A stretch of DNA of 64,000 nucleotides from Candidatus Altimarinota bacterium (GTDB lineage Bacteria; Patescibacteriota; Gracilibacteria; 1-14-2-50-48-13). Positions 46,798 through 63,013 of the stretch are shown here, piece by piece. The notes beneath the pieces were generated by a model. The model worked only from the letters and a program-made list of their open reading frames with translations, searched no databases and was not told where the DNA came from. Numbering within the stretch: the stretch's first letter is position 1; each line of letters starts with the position of its first letter. The stretch is from the NCBI GenBank assembly GCA_046314355.1, contig JBKBWQ010000001.1, positions 1,555,056 to 1,619,055 of the forward strand, written 5' to 3'. The position numbers and the translations under genes are program-made.

Positions 46798-47655
46798 ATG
46801 TCATGTTCATATAGTTCACAGACTTCAGATGAACCACTCTATGGCAGTGCAAGCAGTTGTGATATGGAATTTTATTATGCGTTGCCGAAAGCAGAGTGGA
46901 ATAAAGATCAGGTACTCTTTTCTGAGTCGCTTCCTGAAGTATTGAGAGAATGGTATTTTGCAGAGATCAAAGCTGGAAAAAGATGGTCTTTTAGGTGCTA
47001 CGAGGATGAAGAGTTGGATGAAGGTGAGTATTGTGTCCGTATCTACCCGTCAGGAAAAATTCTAAAAACTTCGGATCTTACGATTTTTATGGATGAGCTG
47101 AAGAAATTCGTAAGTGATCCCGAGAGTTCTATCGCTGAGAGTATTAGTGAGGAAGAACTCTATATCTGCACCGACGGTCCTCATGACCAATGCTGCGGAG
47201 AATTCGGATTTCAGGTTTTTGAAAAAGCAAAAAAACTTGCATATGAGTCTTTGAACACATATCAGGTAAGTCACCTAGGAGGACATAAATTTGCTGCTAC
47301 TATGAAATATTATCCTTCTAATGTGATGTACGGACGGGTGAATAAGGATAATATTTCAGGAGTATTGAAGGCAATTGAGGAGGATTATATTTATGCAGAT
47401 TGCTACCGGGGAAGAGGGATATATAACCTTGAACAGACGATAGCGGAGTATGTTTCTGTAAAAAATAATTTTGGCAGCCTAGAAGAGGTAGAAGTGGAAA
47501 CTATAAGCGATACGGTGAAAAATATTATTATTAGTTGTAGAAAAGAAGGAATTCTACTGAATCACTCTTTTAGGATTGAGAGACGGTTCTTTGAGGTGTT
47601 TGGAAGTTGTAAGGACGAGGAGAAAAAGATGGTTCCGAGATGGGTGGTGAAGTAG
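46798..47655 (+). CDS. Sucrase/ferredoxin-like (thioredoxin-like 2Fe-2S) protein
   Basis: ICT.G.HD.CCG..G ... SHLGGHKFA ... YGRV ... YRGR. Confidence 0.8.
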   Translation: MSCSYSSQTSDEPLYGSASSCDMEFYYALPKAEWNKDQVLFSESLPEVLREWYFAEIKAGKRWSFRCYEDEELDEGEYCVRIYPSGKILKTSDLTIFMDELKKFVSDPESSIAESISEEELYICTDGPHDQCCGEFGFQVFEKAKKLAYESLNTYQVSHLGGHKFAATMKYYPSNVMYGRVNKDNISGVLKAIEEDYIYADCYRGRGIYNLEQTIAEYVSVKNNFGSLEEVEVETISDTVKNIIISCRKEGILLNHSFRIERRFFEVFGSCKDEEKKMVPRWVVK

Positions 47656-47877: not shown

Positions 47878-49659
47878 ATGCCTCAAAATAATCTCCCCGA
47901 GTGGGATCTCTCAGACCTTTTCCCATCTCTGGAAAGCCCTGAATATAAAGCTGAACTTGAAAACATTCTCAAAGCAAAGGATGATTTTCTAAAATATAAG
48001 GATGCATTTTTAAACAATGATTTCTCTCCTGCAGATCTTTTGAAAATGATCAAAGACTATGAGCAGCTTGAGATACGGACACTACATATCTACGCATACT
48101 CTCATTTCCAGTATGATGTAGATACTACCAATGAGTTTGTAAAAGCTGAACATGAGAAGGCCAAGAAACTTGTGACGGATATTGCGACAGAGCTTGAGTT
48201 TTTCTCTCAGGGACTAAAAAATATGCCCCATGATGTTTTTGAGGAAATGAAGAAAGCATCCGAACTCTCAGAATATAAAAGATACCTTGAAGTCTTAAAA
48301 ATCTATGAGCCGTACACAAAGTCTGAGAGGGAAGAGCAGATTCTTACAATGAAATCTCTCTACGGCTCTCAGGCATGGGGACAATTCCATACAGAGCTCT
48401 CATCAGGTATGGATTTCGGGACACTTATGGTGGATGGGAAGGAAGAAAAGATGACTCCAGCGCGGCTTGGAAATATTATTACAAATTCTCAGGATCAAAA
48501 TCTTCGATGCGCGGCATATGAGGCAGGAAGAAAGCCTTTCAAGGAAAATAGCCATCTTTTCTCCTTTGCATTCAATGCCGTTGTCTCTGACTTCGAAATG
48601 GATAGCATGCAGATCAGAGGATACACTTCCGGACTTCACAGAGGTACTTTAGGTGAAGAAGTAACTGAGACCCATGTGGAAAATATGAGAAGCTTACTAG
48701 AAGAAAAAATTCCTGTATTTCAGGACTATTATAAATGGAAGAAATCACAGCTTGGCGTAGAGAAGATGCATACCTATGATCTCTCAGCACCACTTTCTTC
48801 AAAGCGGCCCAAGCTTACTTTCGATGAAGCTAAGGATTATGTACTTTCCTGCTATGGCAATTTTAGTGAGGAGTTCAGATCACATGCTTCACGTTTTTTT
48901 GATGAAAAATGGATTGATGCACGCGACAGCGGTACGAAATATGCAGGAGCATATTCTTGGTCTATGAATAAGCATCCATATATTCTACTCAACTTCCAGC
49001 CGAGTATCCAGCAGGCGATGACGATGATCCATGAGCTTGGTCACGGTATACATGCGCTTCTTTCCTCCAAAGGACAGCCTTTTCTGATAAGAGATACTTC
49101 CAAGGTCATTGCTGAGACTGCTTCACAGTTTTCAGAAATGCTCCTGCTTGATTATTTTGAGACGGTATTAGATGACAAGGATGTAGTAAAAGATCTTTTC
49201 GCAGCTCACATTGATGATGTTCTTTATTGTCTTGGAAGCACGCTTACGGTTACAGCCTTTGAAATAGAGACACATAAAAAATCCCTTACAGAAGGAATTT
49301 CCAAGGATGTTTTAAATAATCTTTGGGAAAATTTAATCAAGAATCTGTATGGAGATGCAGTGGAACTTACAGAATATGACAGATATTCATGGTCACGGAT
49401 CCCGCATATTTTTCAGTCTCCGTACTACTACTTCACTTATCCGATGAGTTTAGCGGTAGTGCTTACACTCTACGAACTCTATCTTGAAGATAAGGCGACT
49501 TTTGTAAAAAATTATACAAAGTTTTTAGAAGCCGGCGGAAGTATTGCTACACCGGAGCTTATTGAGAGCTCATTTGGGATTACTTTTGGAGACAGAGCTT
49601 TCTTTGAAAGAGCATTTAGAGTCGTGGAGAGAATGATAGAGAAGGTAAAGACAATGTAG
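47878..49659 (+). CDS. pepF: Oligoendopeptidase F (M3 family)
   Basis: WDLSDLF, WID.....K..GAY, PYILLNF, HELGHGIH, AETASQFSE, WSRIPH....YY.FTY. Confidence 0.9.
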   Translation: MPQNNLPEWDLSDLFPSLESPEYKAELENILKAKDDFLKYKDAFLNNDFSPADLLKMIKDYEQLEIRTLHIYAYSHFQYDVDTTNEFVKAEHEKAKKLVTDIATELEFFSQGLKNMPHDVFEEMKKASELSEYKRYLEVLKIYEPYTKSEREEQILTMKSLYGSQAWGQFHTELSSGMDFGTLMVDGKEEKMTPARLGNIITNSQDQNLRCAAYEAGRKPFKENSHLFSFAFNAVVSDFEMDSMQIRGYTSGLHRGTLGEEVTETHVENMRSLLEEKIPVFQDYYKWKKSQLGVEKMHTYDLSAPLSSKRPKLTFDEAKDYVLSCYGNFSEEFRSHASRFFDEKWIDARDSGTKYAGAYSWSMNKHPYILLNFQPSIQQAMTMIHELGHGIHALLSSKGQPFLIRDTSKVIAETASQFSEMLLLDYFETVLDDKDVVKDLFAAHIDDVLYCLGSTLTVTAFEIETHKKSLTEGISKDVLNNLWENLIKNLYGDAVELTEYDRYSWSRIPHIFQSPYYYFTYPMSLAVVLTLYELYLEDKATFVKNYTKFLEAGGSIATPELIESSFGITFGDRAFFERAFRVVERMIEKVKTM

Positions 49660-50406
49660 TTAACGGGGAAAGTGCAGCCCTCTTTCCAAAATACACTGAG
49701 TATAACTAGTGAATGAAAAAGATTTTTTGAGTAGTATGACAGCTTTTTCTTTGTCAAACGGTTTGCAGGAGAAGATATCCACAAAGAGAGACTGGGAAGG
49801 GATGTGATAGTGCAGAGAAATATGGGATTCAGCAATGACCCGCAGTGCACTGATCCATGTATCCGACTCCGTATGAAATACTTCAGTGAGCGGATGCATA
49901 TCAATCTGAGCGGGTATCTCTTCAAGATAATGGATGATTGTATCCTTAATGTCTTGGAGAGATGCTGCGCCGCTTAGTTGACCTTCAGCCATAAGGTGCG
50001 GTCCATAGATACGGGGGTTGTTAGCATGCTCGACACCGTGAGCGTATTCGAGTTGAGAGCGGACAAGCGTATGCTGGAGAGAGTATTTAGTCTTATATGC
50101 TGTATCAAGTGTAGAAAGTGCAGGTCTGAATTTTTCTTCAAAATTAAAAAAATCCAGAAAGAAACACTTCTTTTTATCATTAGTGTACGTGTGTACCGTT
50201 GCATGCATGCCAGGCGCAAGCAGACATCCCGTTACACCTTCCATATCAATATGCTGATCATCAGGGTAGTACAGGATATGTCTAAAGGCGGCTGTATTTA
50301 CTGTGCTGAAGTATTCTCTCAAGAGAGATTCATCCCGTAAGGATAAAATATCTGACGCATAACCATCGACGCACATATGGACTAATGGAGGCAATGCAGT
50401 TTGCAT
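49660..50406 (-). CDS. Tandem-domain SpeD-like (AdoMetDC-family) pyruvoyl decarboxylase, copy 1, cleavage site intact
   Basis: Domain 1 H..DGY...GVTG.LL.PGMHATVHTY (no ES); domain 2 GPHLM.E...VIAESHISLH...VDIFSCKPFD...ERG; start set at ATG 50406. Confidence 0.8.
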   Translation of the reverse strand: MQTALPPLVHMCVDGYASDILSLRDESLLREYFSTVNTAAFRHILYYPDDQHIDMEGVTGCLLAPGMHATVHTYTNDKKKCFFLDFFNFEEKFRPALSTLDTAYKTKYSLQHTLVRSQLEYAHGVEHANNPRIYGPHLMAEGQLSGAASLQDIKDTIIHYLEEIPAQIDMHPLTEVFHTESDTWISALRVIAESHISLHYHIPSQSLFVDIFSCKPFDKEKAVILLKKSFSFTSYTQCILERGLHFPR

Positions 50407-50437
50407 GGGATAAAATGAAAGTGAAGGATATGTATTT

Positions 50438-52507
50438 TTAAGTATGTACTTCTGTTTCATGTCCGGTAGGAAGAAAAATGCGGAAATGTGTCTCTACTCC
50501 AGGTTCACCTATTTCTTCGATCGTAGCATTATGAAGCTCTAAATAATGTTTTACAGTGCTAAGTCCCATACCTTCCTGATTTTCATCAGTGGTAAACCCT
50601 TCCTCAAAAATCTGTTTCTTCTGAGAATAGAGAATTCCGTCCCCTGTATTGATAAAGTCCATAAAGATACCAATACCTTTTTTCTCTACCTTCATGATAA
50701 TCTTTCCTTCATTTGGTGTAAACTGATAAGCATTATTGAGCAGTTCATCACAGATATTTTTTAGTTTTTCTCTATCAGCAAAAATAGATTCGTTTGTGAT
50801 ATGAAGCTTTTCCCATGTGAAATCAAACTCTTTTTCCTGCATTTTTGCCTGATATGAAGTAAATTCCTCAGTAAAGAACTCCTCCAGAGAGATCTTGCTT
50901 ATATCCAAAATATCCTCTTTCAATTTAAGCTGCTCATCCAGTTCCCAAAGATTTTTTTCCACTGACAAAAATTTCTCATGCCCCTTTTCCTTTTGCAGAT
51001 CCTGAAATACTGCAAGAGCTGACTGTACAGAATTCTGCATATTCTTCATACGTTCTCCCAGACTCTTATTCAATTCAAGAATTGTAGAAGACCGCTCCAA
51101 CTGCGTATTCTTTTCTTCACCTTCGTGACGAAGCAGATCATTCATAAGAAAGATCGCGATATAGTCCGAAAGATTTGTAAGACTCTCTATCTCTTCCTGA
51201 AAATACATATCCCGTGAACGCTTCTTTCCTAAGGTAAGGAATCCAATAAGTTCAGAGCGGAAGAAAAGAGGGAGACATACTGCTGCATTGAGGATATTGA
51301 GATGAAGAAACGCCTTATAATATTCTTCTGAAAGTGGTTTGTCAGAAAATTCTAATTCTTCAGTTACGAGAGGAAGACGATCTCTTTTTAAAAGATCAGT
51401 TAGCTCATTCGATGGGTATACAGGTAAAAATGGATGTTCTTTCTTTTCATTTGTCATAAAAATTTCAGCTCCGCTAATTGCAAGTTTCTGCGCAAAAGTG
51501 GCGTGCATATACTGAGTAAACTCTTTAAATTCTGAGGTAAATTTTAATTGCTCAATTAGGTCGCTTACATTTTTTTGAAAAGTACGTATATTACCTCCTA
51601 ATGTAAAGTTCTTTAAAATTCCAAGATACATTGTAGAGAAAGCCAAAATAGCCATTATACTTGTACAGACTAGTCGTATATTTCTATCTGGTACAAGAGA
51701 GAAAAGAAAATGATCGAGAACAAAAGTGAGACCAAGTGCAAGTAAAAGAGCAATAAACACTCTTAGTACCTTCGAAAAAATAATCTTGATACCAAGAAAC
51801 CGGTATTGAATCATGATAAACAGTACGCATAGCGCTACAGGAGCTGATGCGAGACCACCGATCATATAGTAGTCGACATGACCTAAACTAGGTAAAATTA
51901 CATTGGTAGTAAGTACAACAAGTGCAAATATCAGATATACTATATCAAGGTAAAGTAGCTTTCTTCTTGCTAGACCTGTGGTTCCAAAGCCTTTGAATAC
52001 AAGAGCCAAGAGAATTGTTATAAAACAGATACCATAATGTACAAATAACCATGGTAGCAGAGGTCCGAAGTTATCGGTAAATGAGCTGTCAGGTAAGATA
52101 ACAATTGAATCGTAGACGAGAGGTGTAAAGATAGATAATGCAAAAATCACTAATGCCTGAATCAAAAGCAATTTTCTTACCCAAAAATAGATTTTCTTTA
52201 AAATTGGTTTTTTAAGAAGGGGGGTATTTTCGAAAGGAAAAACAAAGTCACATAAAAATAATAGCATGTAGTAAGTAAATGCTACTGATGTGGCATAGGA
52301 TATACGTGCAATGAAAGTGATATTCTCAGGTGTAGATGAGACATTCTCTAGAGGTACACTATAGTATAGAGAGAAAAGCCAGGCTGCTGTAAAGAATAGA
52401 TAGGTTGAGAAGATTCTATTTATCTTCACATTAGGATTTATTACAAGACTTGCTATACTTGTGCCAAGAAGAGTAATTATTGTGAGAAAAAATAATATTG
52501 ACTCCAT
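50438..52507 (-). CDS. Multi-TM + GAF + HATPase sensor kinase, copy 1, lacking the H-box His
   Basis: About 9 TMs; GAF (LPL...ELIGFL.LGKK.S.D.Y..EE); H-box position reads RMKNMQNSV; N/G1/F/G2 boxes present. Confidence 0.85.
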   Translation of the reverse strand: MESILFFLTIITLLGTSIASLVINPNVKINRIFSTYLFFTAAWLFSLYYSVPLENVSSTPENITFIARISYATSVAFTYYMLLFLCDFVFPFENTPLLKKPILKKIYFWVRKLLLIQALVIFALSIFTPLVYDSIVILPDSSFTDNFGPLLPWLFVHYGICFITILLALVFKGFGTTGLARRKLLYLDIVYLIFALVVLTTNVILPSLGHVDYYMIGGLASAPVALCVLFIMIQYRFLGIKIIFSKVLRVFIALLLALGLTFVLDHFLFSLVPDRNIRLVCTSIMAILAFSTMYLGILKNFTLGGNIRTFQKNVSDLIEQLKFTSEFKEFTQYMHATFAQKLAISGAEIFMTNEKKEHPFLPVYPSNELTDLLKRDRLPLVTEELEFSDKPLSEEYYKAFLHLNILNAAVCLPLFFRSELIGFLTLGKKRSRDMYFQEEIESLTNLSDYIAIFLMNDLLRHEGEEKNTQLERSSTILELNKSLGERMKNMQNSVQSALAVFQDLQKEKGHEKFLSVEKNLWELDEQLKLKEDILDISKISLEEFFTEEFTSYQAKMQEKEFDFTWEKLHITNESIFADREKLKNICDELLNNAYQFTPNEGKIIMKVEKKGIGIFMDFINTGDGILYSQKKQIFEEGFTTDENQEGMGLSTVKHYLELHNATIEEIGEPGVETHFRIFLPTGHETEVHT

Positions 52508-52561
52508 GAAAGGGGGGATTTGCTAATATTGAAATACTGAGGATTACTTATTTATTATACA

Positions 52562-53641
52562 TTATGCGTCTGTTTCCTGACGACCCTTTTTATATTCAGC
52601 TTGGTTACGTTCTATGAACTGTTCTACTGTGGGTGGAAAGTAATCAATATAATCTTGTAGTTTTTTTGCAAATAGCATAAGTTTAATATTTGGAACAATA
52701 CCATCGCAGATATCTATTCCCCCTGCTGCCCTTAGCTGAGCATAGAGTGTAGTTTTTTTATTAGCTTCACCAACAATTGGCAATTGTTTGTATTCTGATG
52801 GCATTTGATCTAAAAATTTTTTGCATATATTGAAAAAATTTTCAAGACCACGATGACCGTTCAAGATCACTAGAATACTCCAGTTATAAGCAAGCGTTTC
52901 ATCATTAAATGTTATATCTAAATGTTCCCCGACTTTTTGCTTATATTCTTCCATCAATCTTTCCTCTTTCTCATAAAATTTTTTAAATTCATGATCATAA
53001 ATCTTTCCAAAAGGAGCCGCATATCCTCCAGCATAACCAACGAGCTCTCCCTCTTCAGTTTTTAGCAATGATATGTGCCCATTTTCGGTAAACTTGCTTT
53101 GAAAGTCATCTTTCACATAATCATGTTCCCAAAATTTTGCTAATTCTGTTGTTGTATGGTCTGTACATGCTAGTTCCTGCAATTTTTGAGCTTTTGTTTC
53201 AGGTAACTCTAATTTTTCAAGGGATTTAATGTTTACATCGGCACCTTTGTCAAATTTAAAGTATTTTTCGGCTGAAACCTTATAATTACATTCCGGATGA
53301 GAGCATTTATAGTATTCTCCCCATGGATATGTAGCAAAACTTTCGATATATTCTTGAACAATAACCTCTACTTCTTCATCGCTAATCTCAGAAAAAGGTT
53401 TTACTTCAACATGATATTTTACTTTCTTCCTCTCCGGAGATTTTTCAGTATCTTTTATATCATTTAAAGCTGCTATAACTTGTTCATGTACCTGTTTTTG
53501 CACAGCTTCAGAGAGTGTTGGTTGTTCAGAAAGTCCAGTCTCTGTAGATATTTCTTTCTCCTTTGCTAAAGGTAACTGTACTGGCATTTCGAGTGAATGC
53601 AGTACATTATTATCTTCTACTGGCTGCTCTGAAAGAGGCAT
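52562..53641 (-). CDS. GNAT-fold acyltransferase-like protein with Cys/His insert, copy 1
   Basis: F...PWGEY.KC....C..KVS, C..H, GELVGY..GY, V....HRG, LY..L.AAG. Confidence 0.6.
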   Translation of the reverse strand: MPLSEQPVEDNNVLHSLEMPVQLPLAKEKEISTETGLSEQPTLSEAVQKQVHEQVIAALNDIKDTEKSPERKKVKYHVEVKPFSEISDEEVEVIVQEYIESFATYPWGEYYKCSHPECNYKVSAEKYFKFDKGADVNIKSLEKLELPETKAQKLQELACTDHTTTELAKFWEHDYVKDDFQSKFTENGHISLLKTEEGELVGYAGGYAAPFGKIYDHEFKKFYEKEERLMEEYKQKVGEHLDITFNDETLAYNWSILVILNGHRGLENFFNICKKFLDQMPSEYKQLPIVGEANKKTTLYAQLRAAGGIDICDGIVPNIKLMLFAKKLQDYIDYFPPTVEQFIERNQAEYKKGRQETDA

Positions 53642-53764
53642 ATCTTGAGAATTAATTAATAATAGTGCTACTTTTATGTTTTGAATGAGATCCGGGATGC
53701 AATGGCTTGTATATTAATCTATATTCTAATTGGAATTTTATATAGGACAATAAGAAAATATTCA

Positions 53765-53802
53765 TTGCTTCCATATATGCTACCTGCTACTATGTTGCAT
53801 AT
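53765..53802 (+). promoter_or_regulatory. Promoter TTGCTT-17-TACTAT overlapped by palindrome ATATGC.AC-N10-GT.GCATAT (possible metal-repressor operator)
   Basis: Inverted repeat 53775-53802 directly upstream of the metal ABC operon. Confidence 0.45.
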
Positions 53803-53820
53803 TGATATGATACTTTTTTT

Positions 53821-54720
53821 ATGAAAAATTTTCGATCCCTTTTCTGTGCTGTTGTACTGCTACTAGCGGTCTCTTGTACAAGCCAAACTAGTATTTCTGA
53901 AAATAATTCTGGTGCAAAACTACAAGTGGTCACTACCTTCGCTCCACTTTATTCCATGACGGTAAACGTGGCAGGAGAATACGCGGATGTAAAAAATCTT
54001 GTTCCCATTGGTTCAAGTGAGCATACCTATCAAGCTCGACCGAGTGATATAGCTCTTCTTTCAAAAGCTGACCTTGTAATAAAGAATGGTGTGAATCTTG
54101 AAGGATTTCTTGATCCATTACTACAATCCTCAGAACATGAAGGGCGGACAATTATTGATACGAGCAGCGGAGTGACATTACTTACGGGATTGGATGAAGA
54201 GGAAACTTCAGGTGATCCTCATATCTGGCTGAGTATTTCAAATGCTGTTATTCAGGTAAAAAATATTGAAAGTGCTCTTAGTCTGAAGGATCCTGCACAT
54301 GCAGATAGATATAAATTCAATGCTGAGACTTACATAACACGCTTAAATACTCTTGAGGCTTCTTTAAAGAATCAAATGTCTTCAACTACAAAAAGACCCT
54401 ATATTCTTTTTCATGATGGATTCCAGTACTTTGAAAAAGAGTTTGATCTTAAGTCCTCCGGTGTCGTAGAAGAGTTTCCCGGTAAAGAACCGAGTGTGGA
54501 ATATATGAAGAATCTCTATGATACTATTGAGCAGGAAAAAGTAAAAGTTGCTTTTACAGAGCCTCAATTTTCTCCTAAAATAATTGATCAGCTCCAGAAG
54601 AGGTTTAATCTTGTGACCGCTGAGTTAGATACAGTTGGTACCACTCTGAGTAAAGAAAGTTATGAAAGATTAATGATGAATAATATAGAGTCTTTTCTAA
54701 ATGCATTCTCTAAAGCTTAA
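53821..54720 (+). CDS. znuA: Zn/Mn ABC transporter substrate-binding protein (ZnuA-like)
   Basis: Lipobox-like LAVSC; EHTY..RPSD, DPHIWLS, FHDGFQYF, EPQF. Confidence 0.85.
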   Translation: MKNFRSLFCAVVLLLAVSCTSQTSISENNSGAKLQVVTTFAPLYSMTVNVAGEYADVKNLVPIGSSEHTYQARPSDIALLSKADLVIKNGVNLEGFLDPLLQSSEHEGRTIIDTSSGVTLLTGLDEEETSGDPHIWLSISNAVIQVKNIESALSLKDPAHADRYKFNAETYITRLNTLEASLKNQMSSTTKRPYILFHDGFQYFEKEFDLKSSGVVEEFPGKEPSVEYMKNLYDTIEQEKVKVAFTEPQFSPKIIDQLQKRFNLVTAELDTVGTTLSKESYERLMMNNIESFLNAFSKA

Positions 54721-54724
54721 TAAT

Positions 54725-55423
54725 ATGTCTAAAGAAACGCTACTGTCAGTGGAAAACCTTTCTCTGCGTATGCAGCAGACAGATATATTAAAAGGTGTCT
54801 CCTTCTCCGTAAAAAGGGGCGAATATGTAGCTCTTATCGGTCCCAACGGCTCAGGAAAAACCTCACTTCTAAAAATTATTCTTGGACTATATGGTCCGAG
54901 TTCTGGTCATTTTAAGCTTCATACTTCTGAGATTGGCTATGTGCCTCAAAAATTAGATATAGATAAAACTATTCCTATTTCCGTAGAAGAATTTCTCAAA
55001 GTATACCATCCTGATTTCGGAAAAATAGAAGGGGATTATGATGTACTTTCTTCTCTTGATGCAAAGAAGCTTCTTAAAAAAAAGCTGGGAGTTTTGAGTG
55101 GGGGAGAATTACAGAAGATACTGATAGCAAATGCAGTGCTCCGAAAGCCTTCATTGCTTCTTCTTGATGAACCAACTGCGGGTATCGATGCGATAGGTGA
55201 AAAATACTTCTATGAATATATGCAGAAATATATCGAAGAATGTAATGCTAGTGTCGTGCTGGTATCTCATGATATGCATATGGTGTATCAATACGCATCT
55301 CAAGTACTTTGTCTCAAGGTCAGTCTCCAGTGCCAGGGGACACCTGATGAGGTTACTTCCTGTAATGCATTTCAGGATATGTTTGGAGCCTCTACTACAC
55401 ATTTTCACCATTATCATAAATGA
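54725..55423 (+). CDS. znuC: Metal ABC transporter ATP-binding protein
   Basis: GPNGSGKT, IGYVPQK, LSGGELQK, LDEPT.GID, His-rich tail. Confidence 0.85.
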   Translation: MSKETLLSVENLSLRMQQTDILKGVSFSVKRGEYVALIGPNGSGKTSLLKIILGLYGPSSGHFKLHTSEIGYVPQKLDIDKTIPISVEEFLKVYHPDFGKIEGDYDVLSSLDAKKLLKKKLGVLSGGELQKILIANAVLRKPSLLLLDEPTAGIDAIGEKYFYEYMQKYIEECNASVVLVSHDMHMVYQYASQVLCLKVSLQCQGTPDEVTSCNAFQDMFGASTTHFHHYHK

Positions 55424-56247
55424 ACATACTTTTAGAACCATTTCAGTATGATTTTTTTGTCCGCGCACTTTTCATGGGAGCTCTCATGGGTGTAGTCTGT
55501 GCACTTCTTGGTATATTTGTGATAATGCGTAGAGAAGCATTGATGAGTCATGCGCTTGCAAATACTGCATTTCTTGGTATCGCGATGGGACTACTTCTGG
55601 GGATCAATCTCCATTGGAGCATGTTTGCACTGACGCTTATTTCTGCAGTGGTGATCTCATATCTTCAGCAGCGGAGGAGTCTGCCTGAAGATTCACTTCT
55701 TGAATTTATCGCCCAGCTTACCTTTGCATTTGCCGTGATTTGTATCTCTTTGCTCCAAGGGTACCGTGTGGATCTTTTTCAATATCTCTTTGGAGATATA
55801 CTAGGGGTTTCCTCATCTGATGTGTGGATACAAGCTCCGATCCTTATTATTCTCCTTTTAATATTTCTTGCACTAAAACGGCAGTTTTTAAAACTTACTC
55901 TCAGCCGCGAACTTGCAGTGAGTCAGAAAGTACCAATATTTTTTCTCAATACTCTCTTTCTTATGCTTGTGGCGATTGTGGTTGCGATAGGTATGAAAGT
56001 AATCGGTGTCATTTTGATCTCAGCCTTTCTTGTTTTACCCGCGAATACTTCCAGAATTCTTTCTTCAAATTTTAAAAGTATGCAGATCGGTGCGGTAATA
56101 GTAGGATTACTTGGAAGTACCCTTGGATTATTTTTATCCTATTATTTCAATATCCCAAGCGGTGCAAGTATAGTTCTTACATTAAGTATATTGCTAATCA
56201 CCGCATTCTTTATTAAGATAGTCAGAGAATCAGCTGTAGGAAAATAA
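55420..56247 (+). CDS. znuB: Metal ABC transporter permease
   Basis: LG.FV..RR..LM.HAL, YLFGDIL, VIG.ILISA.LV.PA, PSGASIV; ATGA overlap with znuC. Confidence 0.9.
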   Translation: MNILLEPFQYDFFVRALFMGALMGVVCALLGIFVIMRREALMSHALANTAFLGIAMGLLLGINLHWSMFALTLISAVVISYLQQRRSLPEDSLLEFIAQLTFAFAVICISLLQGYRVDLFQYLFGDILGVSSSDVWIQAPILIILLLIFLALKRQFLKLTLSRELAVSQKVPIFFLNTLFLMLVAIVVAIGMKVIGVILISAFLVLPANTSRILSSNFKSMQIGAVIVGLLGSTLGLFLSYYFNIPSGASIVLTLSILLITAFFIKIVRESAVGK

Positions 56248-56266
56248 TTATTACCCTCAAAACCCT

Positions 56267-57166
56267 ATGCCTAGAATTATTATCGATGCAGGACATGTGG
56301 ACAATGTGGATCCTGGAGCAGTTGCAAATAACACCACTGAGCACGCAGAGGTGAAAAGAATTGCATTGTATATTATGGAGAAAGTAAAAACTTTACCTGA
56401 GTTTTCAGGATATCAGTTTATACTTGTCCCCACTGACAAGACTCTGACCCAGAAGATTGCATATATCAATAGTGTCGCAACCGCCAGTGACTATACGATC
56501 AGTATTCATCTCAACTCTGCCTCCCCACAGGCGACAGGTACAGAGGTATACTTCCGTACTGAGAATATGACTCACAAGAACAAAGCGCTTCTTTTGCAGG
56601 CTGGTGCAGTGTCTGTATTGAGATTGCAGGATAGAGGAGTCAAAGGTGATACAACTACCGGTCATGGACGGCTTGGTATCATACGAGATACAGTCACCAC
56701 CTCACTTCTCATTGAGCTTGGATTTATTACAAACATCTCTGATCTCAACACTATTCATCGCTCAGGGGGAGATGCGGTTATTGAAGGAATCCGACGTATT
56801 TTTCGACTTAGCCCTTTACCCCCAACGCCAGTGGATCTTACTATACTCAGAAATCTTGAAGCTACTTTTGATACGCTGCTTCGACAGGGACTTGCTCTCA
56901 CCACGCAAGAGCAGACTGTTTTAGCTGCTAGAAAGGAATGGAGGCTTCGCATGGATCAGGTTAGAGGACAAATTCTTGCTCAAATTGCTACTCACCAAGC
57001 TGTACTCAAACCTGAATTTGTTCAGTATGAAACCGTGATTATCAAAGAGTATGCAGTATCAAATCATGATCTTATTGGTAAACTAGATGCTGGTCTGCAG
57101 CAAAGAGCGATCTGGGATGCAAATATGGCACAGATAAGAAGAGATGAAAAACCTTACCAGCCTTAG
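56267..57166 (+). CDS. N-acetylmuramoyl-L-alanine amidase (Amidase_3) with helical C-terminal extension
   Basis: IDAGH...DPGA, TE, SIHLNS, GTEVY, RGVK, LIELGFITN. Confidence 0.9.
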   Translation: MPRIIIDAGHVDNVDPGAVANNTTEHAEVKRIALYIMEKVKTLPEFSGYQFILVPTDKTLTQKIAYINSVATASDYTISIHLNSASPQATGTEVYFRTENMTHKNKALLLQAGAVSVLRLQDRGVKGDTTTGHGRLGIIRDTVTTSLLIELGFITNISDLNTIHRSGGDAVIEGIRRIFRLSPLPPTPVDLTILRNLEATFDTLLRQGLALTTQEQTVLAARKEWRLRMDQVRGQILAQIATHQAVLKPEFVQYETVIIKEYAVSNHDLIGKLDAGLQQRAIWDANMAQIRRDEKPYQP

Positions 57167-57167
57167 G

Positions 57168-57965
57168 TTATTTATAGAGAAAAACCCCCTGTGGAACCTC
57201 AGCATATTTAGATGATTTATCTTTTGGAAAGTACATGCCTCTTTCCAAAAGATTATGAGTACTATTTTTGAAGATAAATTTTTCTTTCAAGAGATAAAGT
57301 ATCTTAGCATCATCAAAAGGGTTACAAGAAAAGACATCTAAAAAAATCATCCGGCTTTCAATATGATAATGGATGGAAAGATGAGCTTCTGAACTTACTC
57401 GTAACGCACTCAGCCACTCTTTCGACTCAATTTGAAAAACCTGTGTGAGAGAATTTATACTTATTTCAGAAGGAAGATCTGTTAAAAATTCTCTAATATG
57501 TTTTCTCATAAATGTTGAGGATCTTTCCTCCACTTGTAGTTCTGTCATGAGATGAGGTATATGGGTGCTCGTCTTAGATGCTGGATATGTCCCCGGCATC
57601 AAGGTTTGGTGTTTTCTGACTATCGTATTTTGGATGCTATAGTCACTTTCATAAGATCCATCCAAGTATATAAGCGCATTTCTATGTTTTCTTTCTTCAA
57701 AACCAAAGAAGTCTAAAAAGTAGCACTTCTTTTTATTATTAGTATAGGTATGTACTGTTGTATGCTGTCCTGGTCCAAGTAGGAACCCTACAACGCCTTC
57801 CATAGCGTTTCCAAGATCATCTGGAAAGTAGAGGATGCGTGTAAATCCTGACTTTTTAACAGAACGGAAGTAAATACTCAAGAGTTCTTCATTCCGGAGA
57901 GAAGAAGTTTCTGCTAAATAGCCGTCAATGCAGAGGTGAATTTTGTTGGGAAAACTATCCTTCAT
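57168..57965 (-). CDS. Tandem-domain SpeD-like protein, copy 2, predicted unprocessable (EAH instead of ESH)
   Basis: Collinear paralog of 49660..50406; domain 2 reads VSSEAHLSIH...DVFSCNPFD. Confidence 0.8.
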   Translation of the reverse strand: MKDSFPNKIHLCIDGYLAETSSLRNEELLSIYFRSVKKSGFTRILYFPDDLGNAMEGVVGFLLGPGQHTTVHTYTNNKKKCYFLDFFGFEERKHRNALIYLDGSYESDYSIQNTIVRKHQTLMPGTYPASKTSTHIPHLMTELQVEERSSTFMRKHIREFLTDLPSEISINSLTQVFQIESKEWLSALRVSSEAHLSIHYHIESRMIFLDVFSCNPFDDAKILYLLKEKFIFKNSTHNLLERGMYFPKDKSSKYAEVPQGVFLYK

Positions 57966-58038
57966 AAGATGATTCTAAGATAATAGATAAAACTATTATA
58001 CAAAAAAAGAGTGAATCAAATGTGAATATTTCCTGTGC

Positions 58039-60123
58039 TTATTTAAATGATGGTGTGGGAAATAGAGTAATAGAAGGCTCCTCATAGGGAAGTATAATCC
58101 TAAAGTGTGTTTCTACACCTGCTGTTCCTATTTCTTCAATGCTTCCATTATGCATTTCGATATATTCTTTTACGGTTGCTAGTCCAATTCCACTTCCTCG
58201 TTCTGTGTCTGTAGTAAATCCTTGTTCGAAAATTTTTTCCTTATGTGTAGGTAGAATTCCATTCCCTGTATTGATAAAATCAATAATAAATACATTCATC
58301 TTCTTCTCTACGCATAGGACTACTTTTCCTTTATTTGGTGTAAACTTATATGCGTTATTGAGTAAATTCTCACAAATACTATGTAATTTTGAACGATCTG
58401 CATATAAAAATTCATTTTCCAAATGTATGCTCTCCAAAGTAAAATCAATTTCTTTTTCCTTCATAAGATCCTGATGTGACAGGAATTCTGACTGAAAAAA
58501 GTCTTCTGCAGAAATAATCTTTTTATGAAGTGTGTCATCTTTGAGTGAGAGTTTATCTTCCATTTCCCAGAGATTTTTCTCTATTTTTAGCACTTTATTA
58601 TCCGACTCTTTTACTTTTATATCCCGGATTACTGCCATAGCAGATTGAAGAGAATTTTTCATATCATGCATACGTTTCTTTACGAGCTCATTTGTTTTGA
58701 ATACTTCCTCAGAACGCTTAAGTTGAGCACTTTTCTCTGTTCCCTCATGTCTAAGAGAGTCATTGACAAGAAATATAGCAATATAATCAGACAAACTCGA
58801 TAGTGCCTCTAACTCCTCCAGGAAATACATATCTTGAGAGAACTTTTTCCCAAGAGTCAGGAACCCTATAAGTTCTGTTCTAAAGAAGAGAGGGATACAG
58901 ACTGATGCATGTAAGATACTCAAATGAACAAGTGCTTTATAATACTCCTCCGATAATGGTCTTTCAGAGAATTCCAGCTCCTCGGTAACTAACGGCTTGC
59001 GGTCCCGCTTAAGAATATCTGTCAGTTCATTTTCTGGATAGATAGGAAAGAAACGGTGTTCAGTTTTTTCATTTGTAATAAAGATTTCAGCTCCGCTAAT
59101 ACCAAGTTTCTGCGTAAAAGCAATACGCATATTCTGGCTGAATTCATTAAACTCAGACGTGAATTTAAGATCTTCAATAAGGTCATCAATACTTTTCTGA
59201 AATGATCCTTGATACTTCGTTTTAAGCACTGTAAAGCGTATCATATAAAAGCTTGCGATTGCGATTATCGCATTAAGAGAAAGGCGCAGCGATATATTCT
59301 TGAGCAGGTAGAGAATAGTATTATCAAAGATATATGCAGTAAAGAGTGCTACACCGAGAGAGAGAACTATACGAAGTACATTGGAAAAGATGATCTTCGT
59401 TCCAAGGAACCTGTAATGCACTATGATATAAACTGTAATAAGTGCAAACGGCGCAGTGGCAATGCCTCCAAGCAAGTAGTAATCAGGCTTACCAAAATTT
59501 GGGAGGATAACATTACATAATATAGTCAGTCCGTAACAGCAGAGGTATGTTACAAAAAGCATAATCAACTTCTTTCTAGGAAGTCCTTCAGCAAAAAAGA
59601 TCTTGATGGTAGGTATGATCAGGCATAAGACAAAATAGAAATAGTGATGCTGAGAAGACCAATCAATCAAGGGACCGAAATAATCAACAATTGACCCATC
59701 AGGATTTACTCCTGTTGATTGATAAATGAGAGGAGTAAAGACAGATATAAATGCGAGTAAAAATGTTTCAACACCAAGAAGAGTCTGAAAAAACTTAATA
59801 TACTTTTTTGAGGATTTTATGACGGGATGATCTATGGATTCGAGAGAAAATACAAATTTGCTCAAGAAGAGAAGAACAAAGTAGGGAAACAGTGCAGCAG
59901 CTCCATAAGCTATCCGTGCAGATATACTGATTCCGGAAACGGTGTATCCCTCATAAGTGGGTATGGCGAGATACAGAGTAAGCAGCCATACAAAAGTGGA
60001 GATAAGGTAATAGAAGAATATTCTATTTACCTTCGAACGGAAATTGTAGAATAGTATAGAAATTGCTGTTCCAAAAACTATGACAATAGTCAGGAAGTAG
60101 AGACTTGTCTGGAAATATTCCAC
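58039..60123 (-). CDS. Multi-TM + GAF sensor histidine kinase, copy 2, H-box intact
   Basis: GTG start; about 9 TMs; GAF; RMHDMKNSL H-box; NLLNNAYKFT, NTG.GI, IFE.GFTT, GSGIGL. Confidence 0.88.
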   Translation of the reverse strand: MEYFQTSLYFLTIVIVFGTAISILFYNFRSKVNRIFFYYLISTFVWLLTLYLAIPTYEGYTVSGISISARIAYGAAALFPYFVLLFLSKFVFSLESIDHPVIKSSKKYIKFFQTLLGVETFLLAFISVFTPLIYQSTGVNPDGSIVDYFGPLIDWSSQHHYFYFVLCLIIPTIKIFFAEGLPRKKLIMLFVTYLCCYGLTILCNVILPNFGKPDYYLLGGIATAPFALITVYIIVHYRFLGTKIIFSNVLRIVLSLGVALFTAYIFDNTILYLLKNISLRLSLNAIIAIASFYMIRFTVLKTKYQGSFQKSIDDLIEDLKFTSEFNEFSQNMRIAFTQKLGISGAEIFITNEKTEHRFFPIYPENELTDILKRDRKPLVTEELEFSERPLSEEYYKALVHLSILHASVCIPLFFRTELIGFLTLGKKFSQDMYFLEELEALSSLSDYIAIFLVNDSLRHEGTEKSAQLKRSEEVFKTNELVKKRMHDMKNSLQSAMAVIRDIKVKESDNKVLKIEKNLWEMEDKLSLKDDTLHKKIISAEDFFQSEFLSHQDLMKEKEIDFTLESIHLENEFLYADRSKLHSICENLLNNAYKFTPNKGKVVLCVEKKMNVFIIDFINTGNGILPTHKEKIFEQGFTTDTERGSGIGLATVKEYIEMHNGSIEEIGTAGVETHFRIILPYEEPSITLFPTPSFK

Positions 60124-60166
60124 AGGAGAGATGATTAGAATTTTATCTTATTCTAGTAGAAAAAAC

Positions 60167-61390
60167 TTACCGCGCAACTGCAATTGGCTGTTTATAGCCG
60201 ATAGTATCCAAGACGGCTACTTCTTCTGGTGATTCTCCTCCTACTGCTCTCCAGCTTTGCTTTTGCATTTTCTTATAGGTTTTATATAAAGGACCGTTCT
60301 CCTGCATATAATTCTCAGGTGTTTTACAAAAAAAGTTCTGTAAATCTTTGACTTGTTTTCCTAGAAGGATCATCACATAACCCTCATATAAACTCTCACA
60401 AATATCACTTGCGCCAGCTGCTTTTAATGTGTTGTAGAAATCAATTCCTCTATTACATTCACCTGGCATTGGGAGATGTGCAAATTTTTCAGGTACTGAG
60501 GATAATATTTTTCTACAGATATGGACAAAATTATCAAAACTTTTTCTATGTGCCTTACTAATACCAAGCATATTCCATACATACACAGAAGAATCTAGGT
60601 TAAATTCCTTACCAAGTACCGTCGAACTTCTTGTAATATACTTAAACATGAGATCTGGATCTTCACTATGAAGCTTAAATTCATGTGCTAGTGCTTCTCT
60701 GAATGAGCTTTTATATCCCCATGTATAACCTACTAGTTCCGCCCCATTTGTTCTCAATAGTGTGATTTGTCCTTCATGTTTAAATTTTCCCTCCAGACTT
60801 TTCCGTAGATCTTCTTTACTAATATAATCAACGAGTTCGTGAGTATCCTTGTGTGCAGGACATTCTGGACAATCATCAGCCTTATTCCCATGAGCTTCCA
60901 ATTCTTTTAAAGGTACATCCACTCCTTTCGTGCCATAGTACTCCTCGACTGAAACCTTGAAAAGACATGAAGGATCACCGCATTTCTTGTATTCACCCCA
61001 AGGTTGAGAACCGAAGTCCTCTCTATAATTCTCTATAAGCTCATTCATATCCTTTACTGTAATTTGATCTAGGCTTTTTGTCTCAAGAAAGTATTTATCA
61101 GAAATGCGTTCTATATCTATCTGCGGTGCAGCTATTACTTCATGTACTTTTGATAGAACATCACTCTTAAATCCTTCAGCATGACGTGACCTATGCGAAG
61201 TTATTTCGGTAGCTCTGAGAGAAAAATTACTTATAAGCTCATTACGCAGAAGTTCAATATCGAATTGTGGAGAAATTGTTTTTGTTGCTGATAGGCTCAC
61301 GGCAAGCGGTATATTTTTTTGTGGCGATTTGGTAGAGGTATTCATTGATAATAGATTATCAATACTCTTTGCCGCTTGAGCTGGTGTCAT
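60167..61390 (-). CDS. GNAT-fold acyltransferase-like protein with Cys/His insert, copy 2
   Basis: F...PWGEYKKC....C..KVS, CPECPAH, ELVGYTWGY, I...HRK, FY..LKAAG. Confidence 0.6.
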   Translation of the reverse strand: MTPAQAAKSIDNLLSMNTSTKSPQKNIPLAVSLSATKTISPQFDIELLRNELISNFSLRATEITSHRSRHAEGFKSDVLSKVHEVIAAPQIDIERISDKYFLETKSLDQITVKDMNELIENYREDFGSQPWGEYKKCGDPSCLFKVSVEEYYGTKGVDVPLKELEAHGNKADDCPECPAHKDTHELVDYISKEDLRKSLEGKFKHEGQITLLRTNGAELVGYTWGYKSSFREALAHEFKLHSEDPDLMFKYITRSSTVLGKEFNLDSSVYVWNMLGISKAHRKSFDNFVHICRKILSSVPEKFAHLPMPGECNRGIDFYNTLKAAGASDICESLYEGYVMILLGKQVKDLQNFFCKTPENYMQENGPLYKTYKKMQKQSWRAVGGESPEEVAVLDTIGYKQPIAVAR

Positions 61391-61481
61391 AGAAAGGGGA
61401 TGATTAAAGTATATATTTACTTTAAAAGATCCTATGTAAATGAATCGTGAAAAAAAACAGTGGAGTAGGAACTATAAGATT

Positions 61482-61509: not shown

Positions 61510-61614
61510 GGAATTATCGGTATGCTAAAAATTAGCGACAATCTTCAAAAAAATAGAAAAAATAAAGACAAATACTGCTCTTTAAAATTTCTATTTCATA
61601 TCACCCTCTCTGAT

Positions 61615-62310
61615 ATGCACAATATACTTATTGTGGAAGATGAACGTGTCATTGCGCAAAGTCTTCAAAAATACCTGCAGAAATCATCTTATAATGTTTC
61701 TGTAGCATACACCTATGATGATGGCTTATCGCAGGCCTTATCGTTGGTGCCAGATATCTTATGTGTAGATATCTCTTTAGGCTGTAGTAAAACAGGTATG
61801 GATCTGTGTGACGAAGTAAGAAAAGTCAGACCGAATATACCGTTACTCATTGTTACGGCAAACTCATTAGAAGACTATATGGAAGAGACCCTCTCACTTG
61901 GTCTTACCGATTACATTTCAAAACCATACCATCCGGAAGAAATACGAATTCGTATTGATCATTTGATGCGCATGCAGAAAAAATATCCACTTTTAGAACC
62001 AATCTCTGCTGAGATTGAGACTATTGCAGATGATTTTGTGGTGATGCACAATAATTCAAAAGTAGTGATTAATGGTGAAGAAAAGCATGTTCCTAAGACT
62101 TTGAAACATCTGCTGGATTTGCTTCTTGAACACCGTAATACTATCGTCTCTCACCAGTATCTGCATGAGAAAATATGGGGAGATTATTTTGACGTAGAAA
62201 AAAAACGTGAAATACGCGCTCATACAAAACGTTTGAGACATATATTAGGTCCAAAGTACGGTCCTAAACTGCAGAATGTCAAATCCCAGGGGTATATTTT
62301 TACTTTTTAA
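61615..62310 (+). CDS. OmpR-type response regulator (REC + wHTH)
   Basis: ILIVEDE, PDILCVD, VTA, YISKPY; LL..LL....IVS...L...IWG, H.KRLR..L, V...GY; start set at ATG 61615. Confidence 0.9.
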   Translation: MHNILIVEDERVIAQSLQKYLQKSSYNVSVAYTYDDGLSQALSLVPDILCVDISLGCSKTGMDLCDEVRKVRPNIPLLIVTANSLEDYMEETLSLGLTDYISKPYHPEEIRIRIDHLMRMQKKYPLLEPISAEIETIADDFVVMHNNSKVVINGEEKHVPKTLKHLLDLLLEHRNTIVSHQYLHEKIWGDYFDVEKKREIRAHTKRLRHILGPKYGPKLQNVKSQGYIFTF

Positions 62311-63013
62311 ATATATCCTTGTCCATTTCAGTAAAGAAACCATACCAGCCTCCCCATGAATTTTGGATGTGATCTGCATAGGTACCGAGAGCTTTTCTAA
62401 TGATGAGAATATGTGCTTTCACACTCATCCCTGTGTAGGAGTCGGCATCCTTCGTTGCCTGAGTGATCTCACTTGAGTGAATATACTGATTTGGTCTTCT
62501 AAATAGATAAGAGAAAACTAGAAGAGATAATCTTCCTAGAGGTATAAGTTTGCCGTTAATAGTTAACATATTATGCTCTTCATCCACATGGATTGCCCGG
62601 TATACTTCATGATCAGGAAGAATATTTTTCTTTTCTTTAGATTTATCTTTTTGTTCTTCCACTAGTTTTATGGCCTTTTTAACGATGAATACATCTAGAT
62701 TTCTTTTTTCGAGGAATGTATTTGCTCCAGCTTCCATCATCTGCGCTATAAGCTCATTATCTACCTCGGAGGCAGTAAACATAATAATAATACTATTTGG
62801 ATTCCGGCTTCTGGCTTTTCTACAGAGTTCTATTCCTTCTGCATATTTTTCACTGAGGTGTATATCAAGACAGAAAATATCATAACTAATATATCCTAAC
62901 CTTTCACTTGCCTCAAAATAGTTATTGTAGCAGTCTACTGTGTATCCATCATGAAAACATCTTTCAAGAATAGAGGTGATAGTAGGATTATCATCTACAA
63001 TAAGTACGCGCAT
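62300..63013 (-). CDS. OmpR-type response regulator (REC + wHTH), convergent with 11-bp overlap
   Basis: VLIVDD, YDIFCLD, FTAS, FLEK; VKAHI..IRK.LG, I.N.WG..Y. Confidence 0.85.
   Translation of the reverse strand: MRVLIVDDNPTITSILERCFHDGYTVDCYNNYFEASERLGYISYDIFCLDIHLSEKYAEGIELCRKARSRNPNSIIIMFTASEVDNELIAQMMEAGANTFLEKRNLDVFIVKKAIKLVEEQKDKSKEKKNILPDHEVYRAIHVDEEHNMLTINGKLIPLGRLSLLVFSYLFRRPNQYIHSSEITQATKDADSYTGMSVKAHILIIRKALGTYADHIQNSWGGWYGFFTEMDKDIFKK

Follow-up and report, generated by a model that had tools for sequence, protein, structure and literature searches.

Opposed losses of catalytic residues in two copies of a SpeD-histidine kinase cassette in a Candidatus Altimarinota genome

Two modules and their catalytic residues

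The window analyzed here is a stretch of 64,000 nucleotides from Candidatus Altimarinota bacterium (contig JBKBWQ010000001.1 of assembly GCA_046314355.1, positions 1,555,056 to 1,619,055), and it carries two copies of a three-gene module. Each encodes a putative GNAT-fold protein, termed X, a polytopic GAF histidine kinase (HK) and a tandem two-domain protein with the SpeD fold of S-adenosylmethionine decarboxylase (AdoMetDC). In module 1, the SpeD-fold protein retains the Ser of the self-cleavage site and the kinase has Lys in the position of the phosphorylated His; in module 2, the kinase retains the His and the SpeD-fold protein has Ala in place of the Ser. A first-pass annotation of this DNA had pointed out the opposition, but missed the third paralogous gene of each module, two neighbouring response regulators and the tandem architecture of the SpeD-fold proteins. 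The six module genes are as follows (domain matches in brackets):

52562..53641, minus strand: X1, first gene of module 1, putative GNAT-fold protein of 359 amino acids with a Cys-Cys...Cys-x-x-His insert
50438..52507, minus strand: HK1, polytopic GAF histidine-kinase paralogue (HATPase_c, 2.3e-14; weak GAF matches)
49660..50460, minus strand: SpeD1, tandem SpeD-fold protein with Ser212 (AdoMet_dc, 1.4e-22, 2 stretches)
60167..61390, minus strand: X2, first gene of module 2, putative GNAT-fold paralogue of 407 amino acids with four Cys
58039..60123, minus strand: HK2, polytopic GAF histidine kinase with an intact H-box (HATPase_c, 1.5e-17)
57168..57965, minus strand: SpeD2, tandem SpeD-fold paralogue with Ala194 (AdoMet_dc, 1.6e-16, 2 stretches)

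A check of reading frames and codons bore out all four residue states. SpeD1 has Ser at residue 212 (TCC, 49825-49827, in the context ALRVIAE[S]HISLHYHI) and SpeD2 has Ala at residue 194 (GCT, 57384-57386, ALRVSSE[A]HLSIHYHI), while HK1 has Lys at residue 488 (AAG, 51044-51046, KSLGERM[K]NMQNSVQS) and HK2 has His at residue 486 (CAT, 58666-58668, ELVKKRM[H]DMKNSLQS). As annotated, the four open reading frames (ORFs) are full length and free of frameshifts: none is interrupted, and each can be aligned to its paralogue over the whole length, SpeD1 with SpeD2 at 48% identity over 249 columns and HK1 with HK2 at 52% over 682 columns. These four, like all six module genes, read unchanged under genetic code table 25.

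Both altered sites are true catalytic columns, as had been claimed. Based on the family profile aligned to PDB chains (1vr7/1tlu), the SpeD Ser column corresponds to the second S of S-E-S-H in Thermotoga maritima AdoMetDC, and the second His and the Cys of that site are also aligned and kept in the C-terminal halves of SpeD1 and SpeD2 (S/A-H-x-x-x-H, F-S-C); we take the matched T. maritima residues to be Ser63, His68 and Cys83. In a MAFFT alignment that includes 14 HisKA-bearing kinases, HK2 His486 falls in the canonical H-box His column, which is occupied by His in 19/20 rows and by Lys in HK1 as the sole exception. The H-box of HK1 reads K-N-M-Q-N against H-D-M-K-N, corresponding to the changes H488K, D489N and K491Q. 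The Glu-Ser self-cleavage site is present in SpeD1 (E211-S212), and SpeD2 has E193-A194. Its motif S-E-A-H matches the engineered, non-processing S63A protein of T. maritima (title of PDB entry 1tmi; wild type SESH), and Ser-to-Ala replacement at the processing Ser blocks cleavage according to the consulted part of one study (S79A/S229A, PMC10407285).

The window comes from a metagenome-derived assembly of 28 contigs with 3.4% estimated contamination, which could raise the suspicion that the differences stem from errors of assembly or sequencing or reflect a mixture of strains. We regard this as extremely improbable. A separately built Logan contig (49,086 nt, depth 20.5, run X1) spans 49600-61400 with 0 differing letters over the whole stretch, so an assembly slip at the sites is unlikely, although run X1 is probably the source sample and its contig thus does not represent independent data. 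Another run, X3, covers next to none of the stretch. Moreover, the HK1 H-box differs at three residues, of which His to Lys alone requires two base changes, and mis-joining of the copies is impossible because the paralogues are only 48-52% identical.

It could also be assumed that neither copy is dead, with HK1 being phosphorylated elsewhere and SpeD2 being processed at Ser191/Ser192 or performing pyruvoyl-free chemistry. SpeD2 does have two Ser just upstream of the site (V-S-S-E-A-H) and keeps its two His and the Cys, and HK1 has further His in the vicinity of the helix (in RHEG, and in GHEK within the hairpin). However, the T. maritima enzyme also has a Ser two positions upstream (S-E-S-H), and its S63A form is nevertheless a non-processing mutant; a shifted SpeD2 cleavage site at the upstream Ser pair was set aside for this reason. 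The RHEG His precedes the H-box column by 26 residues and is confined to the clade of HK1, HK2 and the database relative P0014, being gone in the relatives P0016, P0017 and P0130. The flanking residues that normally accompany the phospho-accepting His (Asp at +1, Lys at +3) are changed in HK1 as well. Taken together, we consider activity of both altered copies very unlikely.

Divergence of the SpeD-fold proteins and the kinases

Both SpeD-fold proteins score well above the cut-off of AdoMet_dc (PF02675; 80.4 bits for SpeD1 and 61 bits for SpeD2, cut-off 25), and the two matched stretches in each indicate tandem domains. The N-terminal half lacks the Ser and the Cys in both proteins, with Gly and a non-Ser residue replacing Glu-Ser, and the same holds for 12/12 family members. 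Because this half is without Glu-Ser and Cys in every member, each SpeD chain appears to be an internal live/dead pseudo-dimer already. The likely true start of SpeD1 is at 50406, as its relatives and the database entry P0001 (248 amino acids) begin at the second Met. In an AlphaFold2 (AF2) model of SpeD1 with a predicted local distance difference test (pLDDT) value of 72.4, the C-terminal half resembles T. maritima AdoMetDC (1vr7/1tlu) with TM-scores by target of 0.75-0.77, and the whole chain resembles human AdoMetDC over ~297 columns with a TM-score by query of 0.43. The AdoMetDC equivalog TIGR03330 was not reached at its cut-off of 75.65 bits (SpeD1 63.6, SpeD2 44.6).

Among the close SpeD homologues, which were collected with SpeD1 and SpeD2 as queries (P0002, P0003, P0004, P0134 and the distant P0006), Glu-Ser is found in 6/7 with SpeD2 as the exception. 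SpeD2 is likewise the sole exception among the 12 cassette-linked SpeD-like proteins, 11 of which have the Ser. In the tree, SpeD2 groups with P0134 and P0004 (support 98/97). Since both of these closest relatives keep Glu-Ser, the Ala appears to have arisen on the terminal SpeD2 branch, as a lineage-specific change and not as the mark of a conserved prozyme class or an old dead class. The first-pass annotation had compared SpeD2 with prozyme, the catalytically dead paralogue of trypanosomatid AdoMetDC (described in the consulted parts of PMC5201418 and PMC6221367), and had named absence of the dead copies from relatives as evidence against its proposal; with Ala in 0/2 of the SpeD2 relatives, the analogy is weakened. 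SpeD2 deviates at 10/88 otherwise invariant columns, compared to 5/83 and 7/85 for its relatives, and its deviations beside the site include I191S, S194A, K215N, Y135H and G136I. Scans of metagenome contigs with the SpeD alignment and with P0006 yielded no confirmed relative. A further database protein, P0005 (217 amino acids, on a contig of 847 nt), matches the SpeD-like N-domain over its N-terminal 150 residues and then continues into the C-terminal end of HATPase_c, which points either to a genuine fusion or to a chimera created during assembly.

The kinases show a comparable distribution. His is present in 11/12 cassette-linked kinases, HK1 being the sole exception, and the motif M-H-D-M-K-N-S in 5/6 close kinase homologues, again except HK1; the relatives in this set are P0014, P0016 and P0017, found with HK2 as query, and P0130 from a genome contig. 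HATPase_c is matched by HK1 and HK2 with 54.2 and 64.5 bits (cut-off 26.4). HK1 retains three motifs of the ATP-binding domain, presumably the N, G1 and F boxes, and the fourth, presumably G2, is one residue shorter (E-G-M-G-L vs G-S-G-I-G-L). Pfam HisKA was reported for neither kinase at E-values up to 0.1, and HK2 has a partial match to the PrsK-type model TIGR02916 (residues 404-679).

HK1 is sister to the pair of HK2 and P0014, which are 84.2% identical, and its branch has a length of 0.67-0.78 compared to 0.32-0.35 for the HK2 lineage. A search of 5.8 billion protein clusters yielded nothing closer to HK1. We counted deviations by domain at columns conserved in HK2, P0014 and P0017, a comparison that involves few sequences, with P0016 as comparator:

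Dimerization and histidine phosphotransfer (DHp) domain: HK1 deviates at 14/31 columns, P0016 at 6/31
GAF domain: HK1 deviates at 9/55 columns, P0016 at 15/55
Catalytic and ATP-binding (CA) domain: HK1 deviates at 17/60 columns, P0016 at 6/29
Transmembrane (TM) region: HK1 deviates at 31/79 columns, P0016 at 32/80

The trends suggest that HK1 evolved about twice as fast as HK2, with changes concentrated in the phosphotransfer helix. The comparator itself, P0016 (621 amino acids, on a contig of 31.6 kb), keeps the H-box and ends soon after the N box, without G1, F and G2, and thus appears to show decay elsewhere in the kinase family that is opposite in kind to that of HK1. A scan of genome contigs recovered one true kinase relative on a contig of 1.7 kb (L009). 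Among 101 genomes of the family to which its host belongs, a full-length kinase match occurs in that genome only (1.1e-201), whereas the other 20 matches cover the catalytic end alone. In that genome, G041, which is the only one outside the class with a relative of this kinase, a weak SpeD-like C-terminal fragment was observed at a contig edge (L017:2-202, E 9.4e-4), with Asp-Ser-Gly at the site and Tyr in the position of the processing His.

Distribution and surroundings of the cassette

The distribution of the cassette was assessed across 201 sampled genomes from the same class. X was detected in 41/201 genomes, Pfam AdoMet_dc in 25/201 and the tandem SpeD profile in 27/201, and the trio of SpeD, X and kinase occurs in six genomes including the present one (6/201). 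In two of them (G037 and G190), a single ORF of 580 and 587 amino acids, respectively, combines X and the tandem SpeD-like domain (L047:5944-7686 and L049:344-2107) and is directly followed by a kinase of ~695 amino acids with seven transmembrane segments, HisKA and HATPase domains; the cleavage site of the fusions is Thr-Ser vs Glu-Ser in SpeD1. In the other three (G177, G014, G231), a tandem SpeD-like gene lies beside X in varying order, followed by a kinase of 687-709 amino acids, with an OmpR-type regulator nearby in G014. G037 harbors a second pair of X (291 amino acids) and kinase (722 amino acids) at L048:5776-8829, ~18 kb from the full cassette on the same contig, and this pair shows that trimmed modules without decarboxylase exist. 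It adjoins a Bro-N domain protein.

A Spermine_synth match is present in only 1/6 cassette genomes, namely this one (C1:66151, ~1.5 Mb away), and in none of the other 5/6, while G295, G040 and G233 each have a single-domain SpeD gene with such a match no more than a few kb away. The cassette decarboxylase may accordingly feed an amine to X instead of serving spermidine synthesis.

Close counterparts of the module-2 proteins are P0138 for X2 (76.8% identity), P0014 for HK2 (84.2%) and P0134 for SpeD2 (63.5%). P0134 and P0014 each lie on a contig of 4281 nt, and all three proteins together seem to represent module 2 of a single relative, with both the His and the Ser. Between the two lineages, divergence of the module-2 decarboxylase is 2.3 times that of its kinase. 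As the corresponding ratio is 1.14 for the pair of G037 and G190 (60.8%, 65.6%), this suggests a relaxed constraint on the module-2 decarboxylase in both lineages.

X1 and X2 share 35% identity, and neither has a Pfam or NCBIfam match. Acetyltransf_1 is touched by 1/31 members of the X family (E 8.4e-4), and the family comprises 33 matches, including X itself, among 1.84 billion representative proteins. An AF2 model of X1 built on 31 sequences reached a pLDDT of 84.6. All top matches listed in a Foldseek search of this model against the PDB are GNAT N-acyltransferases, with 7k09_D at E 4.4e-4 and a TM-score by target of 0.52, and the matches listed range from E 4e-4 to 3e-2 with TM-scores by target of 0.4-0.6. 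The assignment of X to the GNAT fold is therefore weak but consistent. The family has an insert of the form Cys-x4-Cys...Cys-x-x-Cys/His, which is kept in X1 and X2. A candidate loss of the zinc-ribbon Cys pair in X1 was rejected, as C-x-x-H is a common variant in the family alignment.

Further features of the window in the vicinity of the modules are:

61522..62310, plus strand: OmpR-type response regulator, divergent from X2 (Response_reg, 9.3e-22; Trans_reg_C, 8.7e-11), with acidic pocket, Asp, Thr and Lys present
62300..63013, minus strand: second OmpR-type response regulator (Response_reg, 3e-16; Trans_reg_C, 3.7e-4), with phospho-acceptor residues present
53821..57166, plus strand: spacer between the modules, given for context, with a ZnuA-type binding protein (ZnuA, 1.3e-71), an Amidase_3 cell-wall amidase (5.7e-22) and two more ORFs

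Both regulators adjoin module 2 and none is found beside module 1. They are mutually 25% identical over the receiver domain, and the genome holds 5 receiver-domain matches, with the regulator at 61522-62310 among them. Since the ZnuA and Amidase_3 genes on the opposite strand separate the modules, these do not form a simple tandem duplication. The two additional spacer ORFs look like the ABC ATPase and permease of the ZnuA-type binding protein, labels that derive from the ORF translations, whereas ZnuA and Amidase_3 were assigned by Pfam.

Promoter-like sites occur at chance level (51 found vs 46.3 +/- 7.1 expected) and terminator-like sites below it (5 vs 7.7 expected). No upstream motif or long DNA repeat common to both modules was detected, the best repeat (67 nt, 73%) lying inside the X genes. 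Next to module 1, an M3 oligoendopeptidase gene at 47878-49659 ends one base short of the SpeD1 stop codon on the opposite strand, and a Sucrase/ferredoxin-like protein (PF06999) is encoded just outside the module at 46798-47655 (plus strand).

The reading frames of the window bear on the genetic code of the class. About 96% of the window lies in ORFs of at least 150 codons under table 11, and 5/46 long ORFs end in TGA. The X and SpeD homologues of G295, G268, G225 and others in the class carry 5-16 in-frame TGA codons, while the genes studied here are intact under table 11; these genomes thus appear to read TGA as sense, and the class to mix two genetic codes. A single ORF at 10959-28958 (plus strand) encodes a giant protein for a genome of 1.69 Mb, with 5,999 codons under table 11 and 6,056 codons, including one in-frame TGA, if TGA is read as sense. 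We found no published work that joins Patescibacteria, S-adenosylmethionine decarboxylase and histidine kinase, in a literature search limited to that combination.

Proposed complementary decay and comparison with known systems

Between the paralogues, the proportion of synonymous differences (pS) is 0.70-0.76 and thus saturated, while that of nonsynonymous differences (pN) is 0.31-0.45. From these values, the event that gave rise to two cassettes, be it duplication or a second gain, appears to be old, and purifying selection appears to have dominated the history of both copies; with synonymous sites saturated, the paralogue dN/dS is uninformative on recent branches. The reciprocity of the losses by itself is weak evidence for a functional relationship, because two independent losses, one per gene family, are expected to land in opposite modules in half of cases by chance. 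On balance, we lean towards complementary degeneration that followed duplication or a second gain of the cassette and left one working kinase and one working decarboxylase.

According to this reading, the genome has two copies, long diverged, of a cassette that occurs sporadically in this class of tiny-genome bacteria of the CPR (candidate phyla radiation) type. The decarboxylase would make an amine, X would acylate it, and the kinase and regulators would sense the product or a related cue. Redundancy of the two cassettes could then have let one copy of each catalytic function decay. With its phospho-acceptor H-box lost, HK1 would no longer autophosphorylate at the canonical site, and SpeD2, without the pyruvoyl-forming Ser, would remain an uncleaved, inactive proenzyme. 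The result would be a composite system in which SpeD1 provides decarboxylation and HK2 with the adjacent regulators provides phospho-signalling. Neither module would be self-sufficient, and their dependence would lie at the level of the pathway, with no need for live/dead heterodimers. Because the GAF region is the best-kept part of HK1, this protein has probably been retained as a non-phosphorylating sensor or modulator. SpeD2 may represent a relaxed copy that is early in decay or shifting to a non-catalytic role.

Several observations weigh against complementary decay. Both altered copies are intact ORFs (265 and 689 codons) in a region of 36-40% G+C. SpeD2 does not seem to be drifting freely either, because its branch (0.47) is no longer than those of its Ser-bearing relatives (0.36 and 0.46). 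The ATP-binding motifs of HK1 have been kept despite the hits to its H-box, which hints at a remaining activity such as trans-phosphorylation of HK2. The rate contrasts reported above are trends on very few sequences, the SpeD and DHp counts being given without a significance test, and the origin of P0014, P0134 and P0138 from a single organism is deduced only from matching similarity and, for P0014 and P0134, from the 4281-nt contigs. Finally, SpeD1 and SpeD2 may be physical partners, as a structural model of the pair passed its controls.

For this model, SpeD1 and SpeD2 were submitted together, each with its own 7-row alignment, in three runs. The complex scored 0.72 compared to 0.00 for the best control, the runs agreed in at least 63% of contacts, and the partner pLDDT was at least 79. 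In the benchmark, this mark is reached by 58/80 solved complexes and 2/110 mismatched pairs, a rough guide since the proteins' own alignments were used here. In the predicted interface, the linker strands of both proteins pair symmetrically and in antiparallel orientation, SpeD1 106-115 with SpeD2 107-116. These results support the view that SpeD proteins can dimerize, but because the interface is symmetric between homologous strands, the model does not separate hetero- from homodimers. The heterodimer modelling proposed in the first-pass annotation thus gave a positive result for the pair, which homodimers would fit equally well.

The annotation had gone further and suggested that the copies are interdependent through active/dead heterodimers of both enzyme and receptor. 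Here SpeD2 would act as a prozyme for SpeD1, while HK1 would pair with HK2 and either trans-phosphorylate His486 or tune HK2 in the manner of RetS/GacS. The complex model speaks for such obligate heteromers, as do the similarity of the pairing strand in both paralogues, the retention of ATP-binding motifs in HK1 alongside three H-box changes, and the intactness of both dead ORFs. There are also precedents in the AdoMetDC-prozyme heterodimer (PMC5201418) and in the FasB/FasC heterodimer with a proposed pseudokinase (PMC12675982), both taken from portions of these papers. On the other hand, the SpeD2 relatives keep the Ser and no relative of the HK1 type was found among the protein clusters searched. 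Besides the equal fit of homodimers, close cousins of true partners also pass the complex test. The DHp domain is the most altered domain of HK1 (14/31 conserved columns), which argues against a preserved pairing surface with HK2, and the SpeD chain is presumably an internal live/dead pseudo-dimer already, so that a second dead partner would not be needed for the active site. We therefore rate obligate heteromers as rather unlikely. What stands of the proposed interdependence is that one kinase and one decarboxylase function remain; as live/dead heteromers it finds no backing in the relatives, where the dead states are conserved nowhere.

A more far-reaching possibility, which we consider quite doubtful, is that the locus captures the birth of two pseudoenzyme partners. 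SpeD2, having lost its Ser only recently, would dimerize with SpeD1 via the conserved linker strand as an incipient bacterial prozyme, and HK1, with its sensor and ATP-binding domains kept, would signal only through HK2 and the two regulators. Both cassettes would then belong to a single circuit for making and sensing an acylated amine not yet described.

For experiments, the naturally occurring S-to-A proenzyme and the live paralogue beside it offer a clean pair. Of broader interest is the cassette itself, which recurs in CPR-type genomes, has X and the decarboxylase fused in two of them and does not follow the distribution of spermidine synthase. Its products may form a pathway, so far undescribed, to a signal or metabolite derived from an amine, in organisms that have very few regulatory systems.

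Comparing the SpeD pair to prozyme, a dead paralogue of a two-lobed AdoMetDC-fold enzyme lies beside a live copy in the genome in both cases, and a heterodimer model passes its controls here. Prozyme, however, is conserved across trypanosomatids and required for activity, whereas the Ser loss described here is confined to one genome with relatives keeping the Ser; the live site lies in the C-terminal half here, and activation by SpeD2 is putative. Bacterial SpeD-SpeD fusions, including a Victivallis vadensis form with a degraded second domain, have been described by Li et al. (J Biol Chem 2023, PMC10407285). As far as the consulted sections of that study go, they resemble our proteins in having two SpeD-homologous domains in one chain, one of them without key site residues, and in the abolition of cleavage by Ser-to-Ala. 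The published fusions have a live N-terminal AdoMetDC and a C-terminal domain that is an ornithine decarboxylase or degraded, in a gene upstream of speE; in our proteins, the N-terminal half is the dead one in 12/12, so that the polarity is reversed, and the linkage is with a putative GNAT-fold protein and a sensor kinase.

Non-catalytic histidine-kinase paralogues are known from FasB/FasC and RetS/GacS (PMC12675982, in the part consulted). Together with DivL, these systems share with our locus a full-length kinase-like sensor without canonical autophosphorylation beside a competent kinase, and by analogy HK1 may act through HK2. They differ in that the dead state of HK1 is without a known orthologue and its phosphotransfer helix is the most diverged part; a regulatory effect is putative. 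The DivL structure (PDB 4q20) is among the HK2 matches listed. DivL has Tyr in place of the phospho-accepting His.

Duplication-degeneration-complementation denotes the reciprocal loss of subfunctions after duplication. As in this model, two duplicates would have lost different functions and both must be kept; unlike in the classic model, which deals with subfunctions of one gene, the losses here affect different genes of a duplicated cassette. Most known examples of prozymes and His-less kinases are pairs of long standing that have been conserved, whereas here both losses are found in one duplicated cassette whose close relatives carry the live residues. The locus could hence show how live/dead pairs begin, or simply how redundancy decays.

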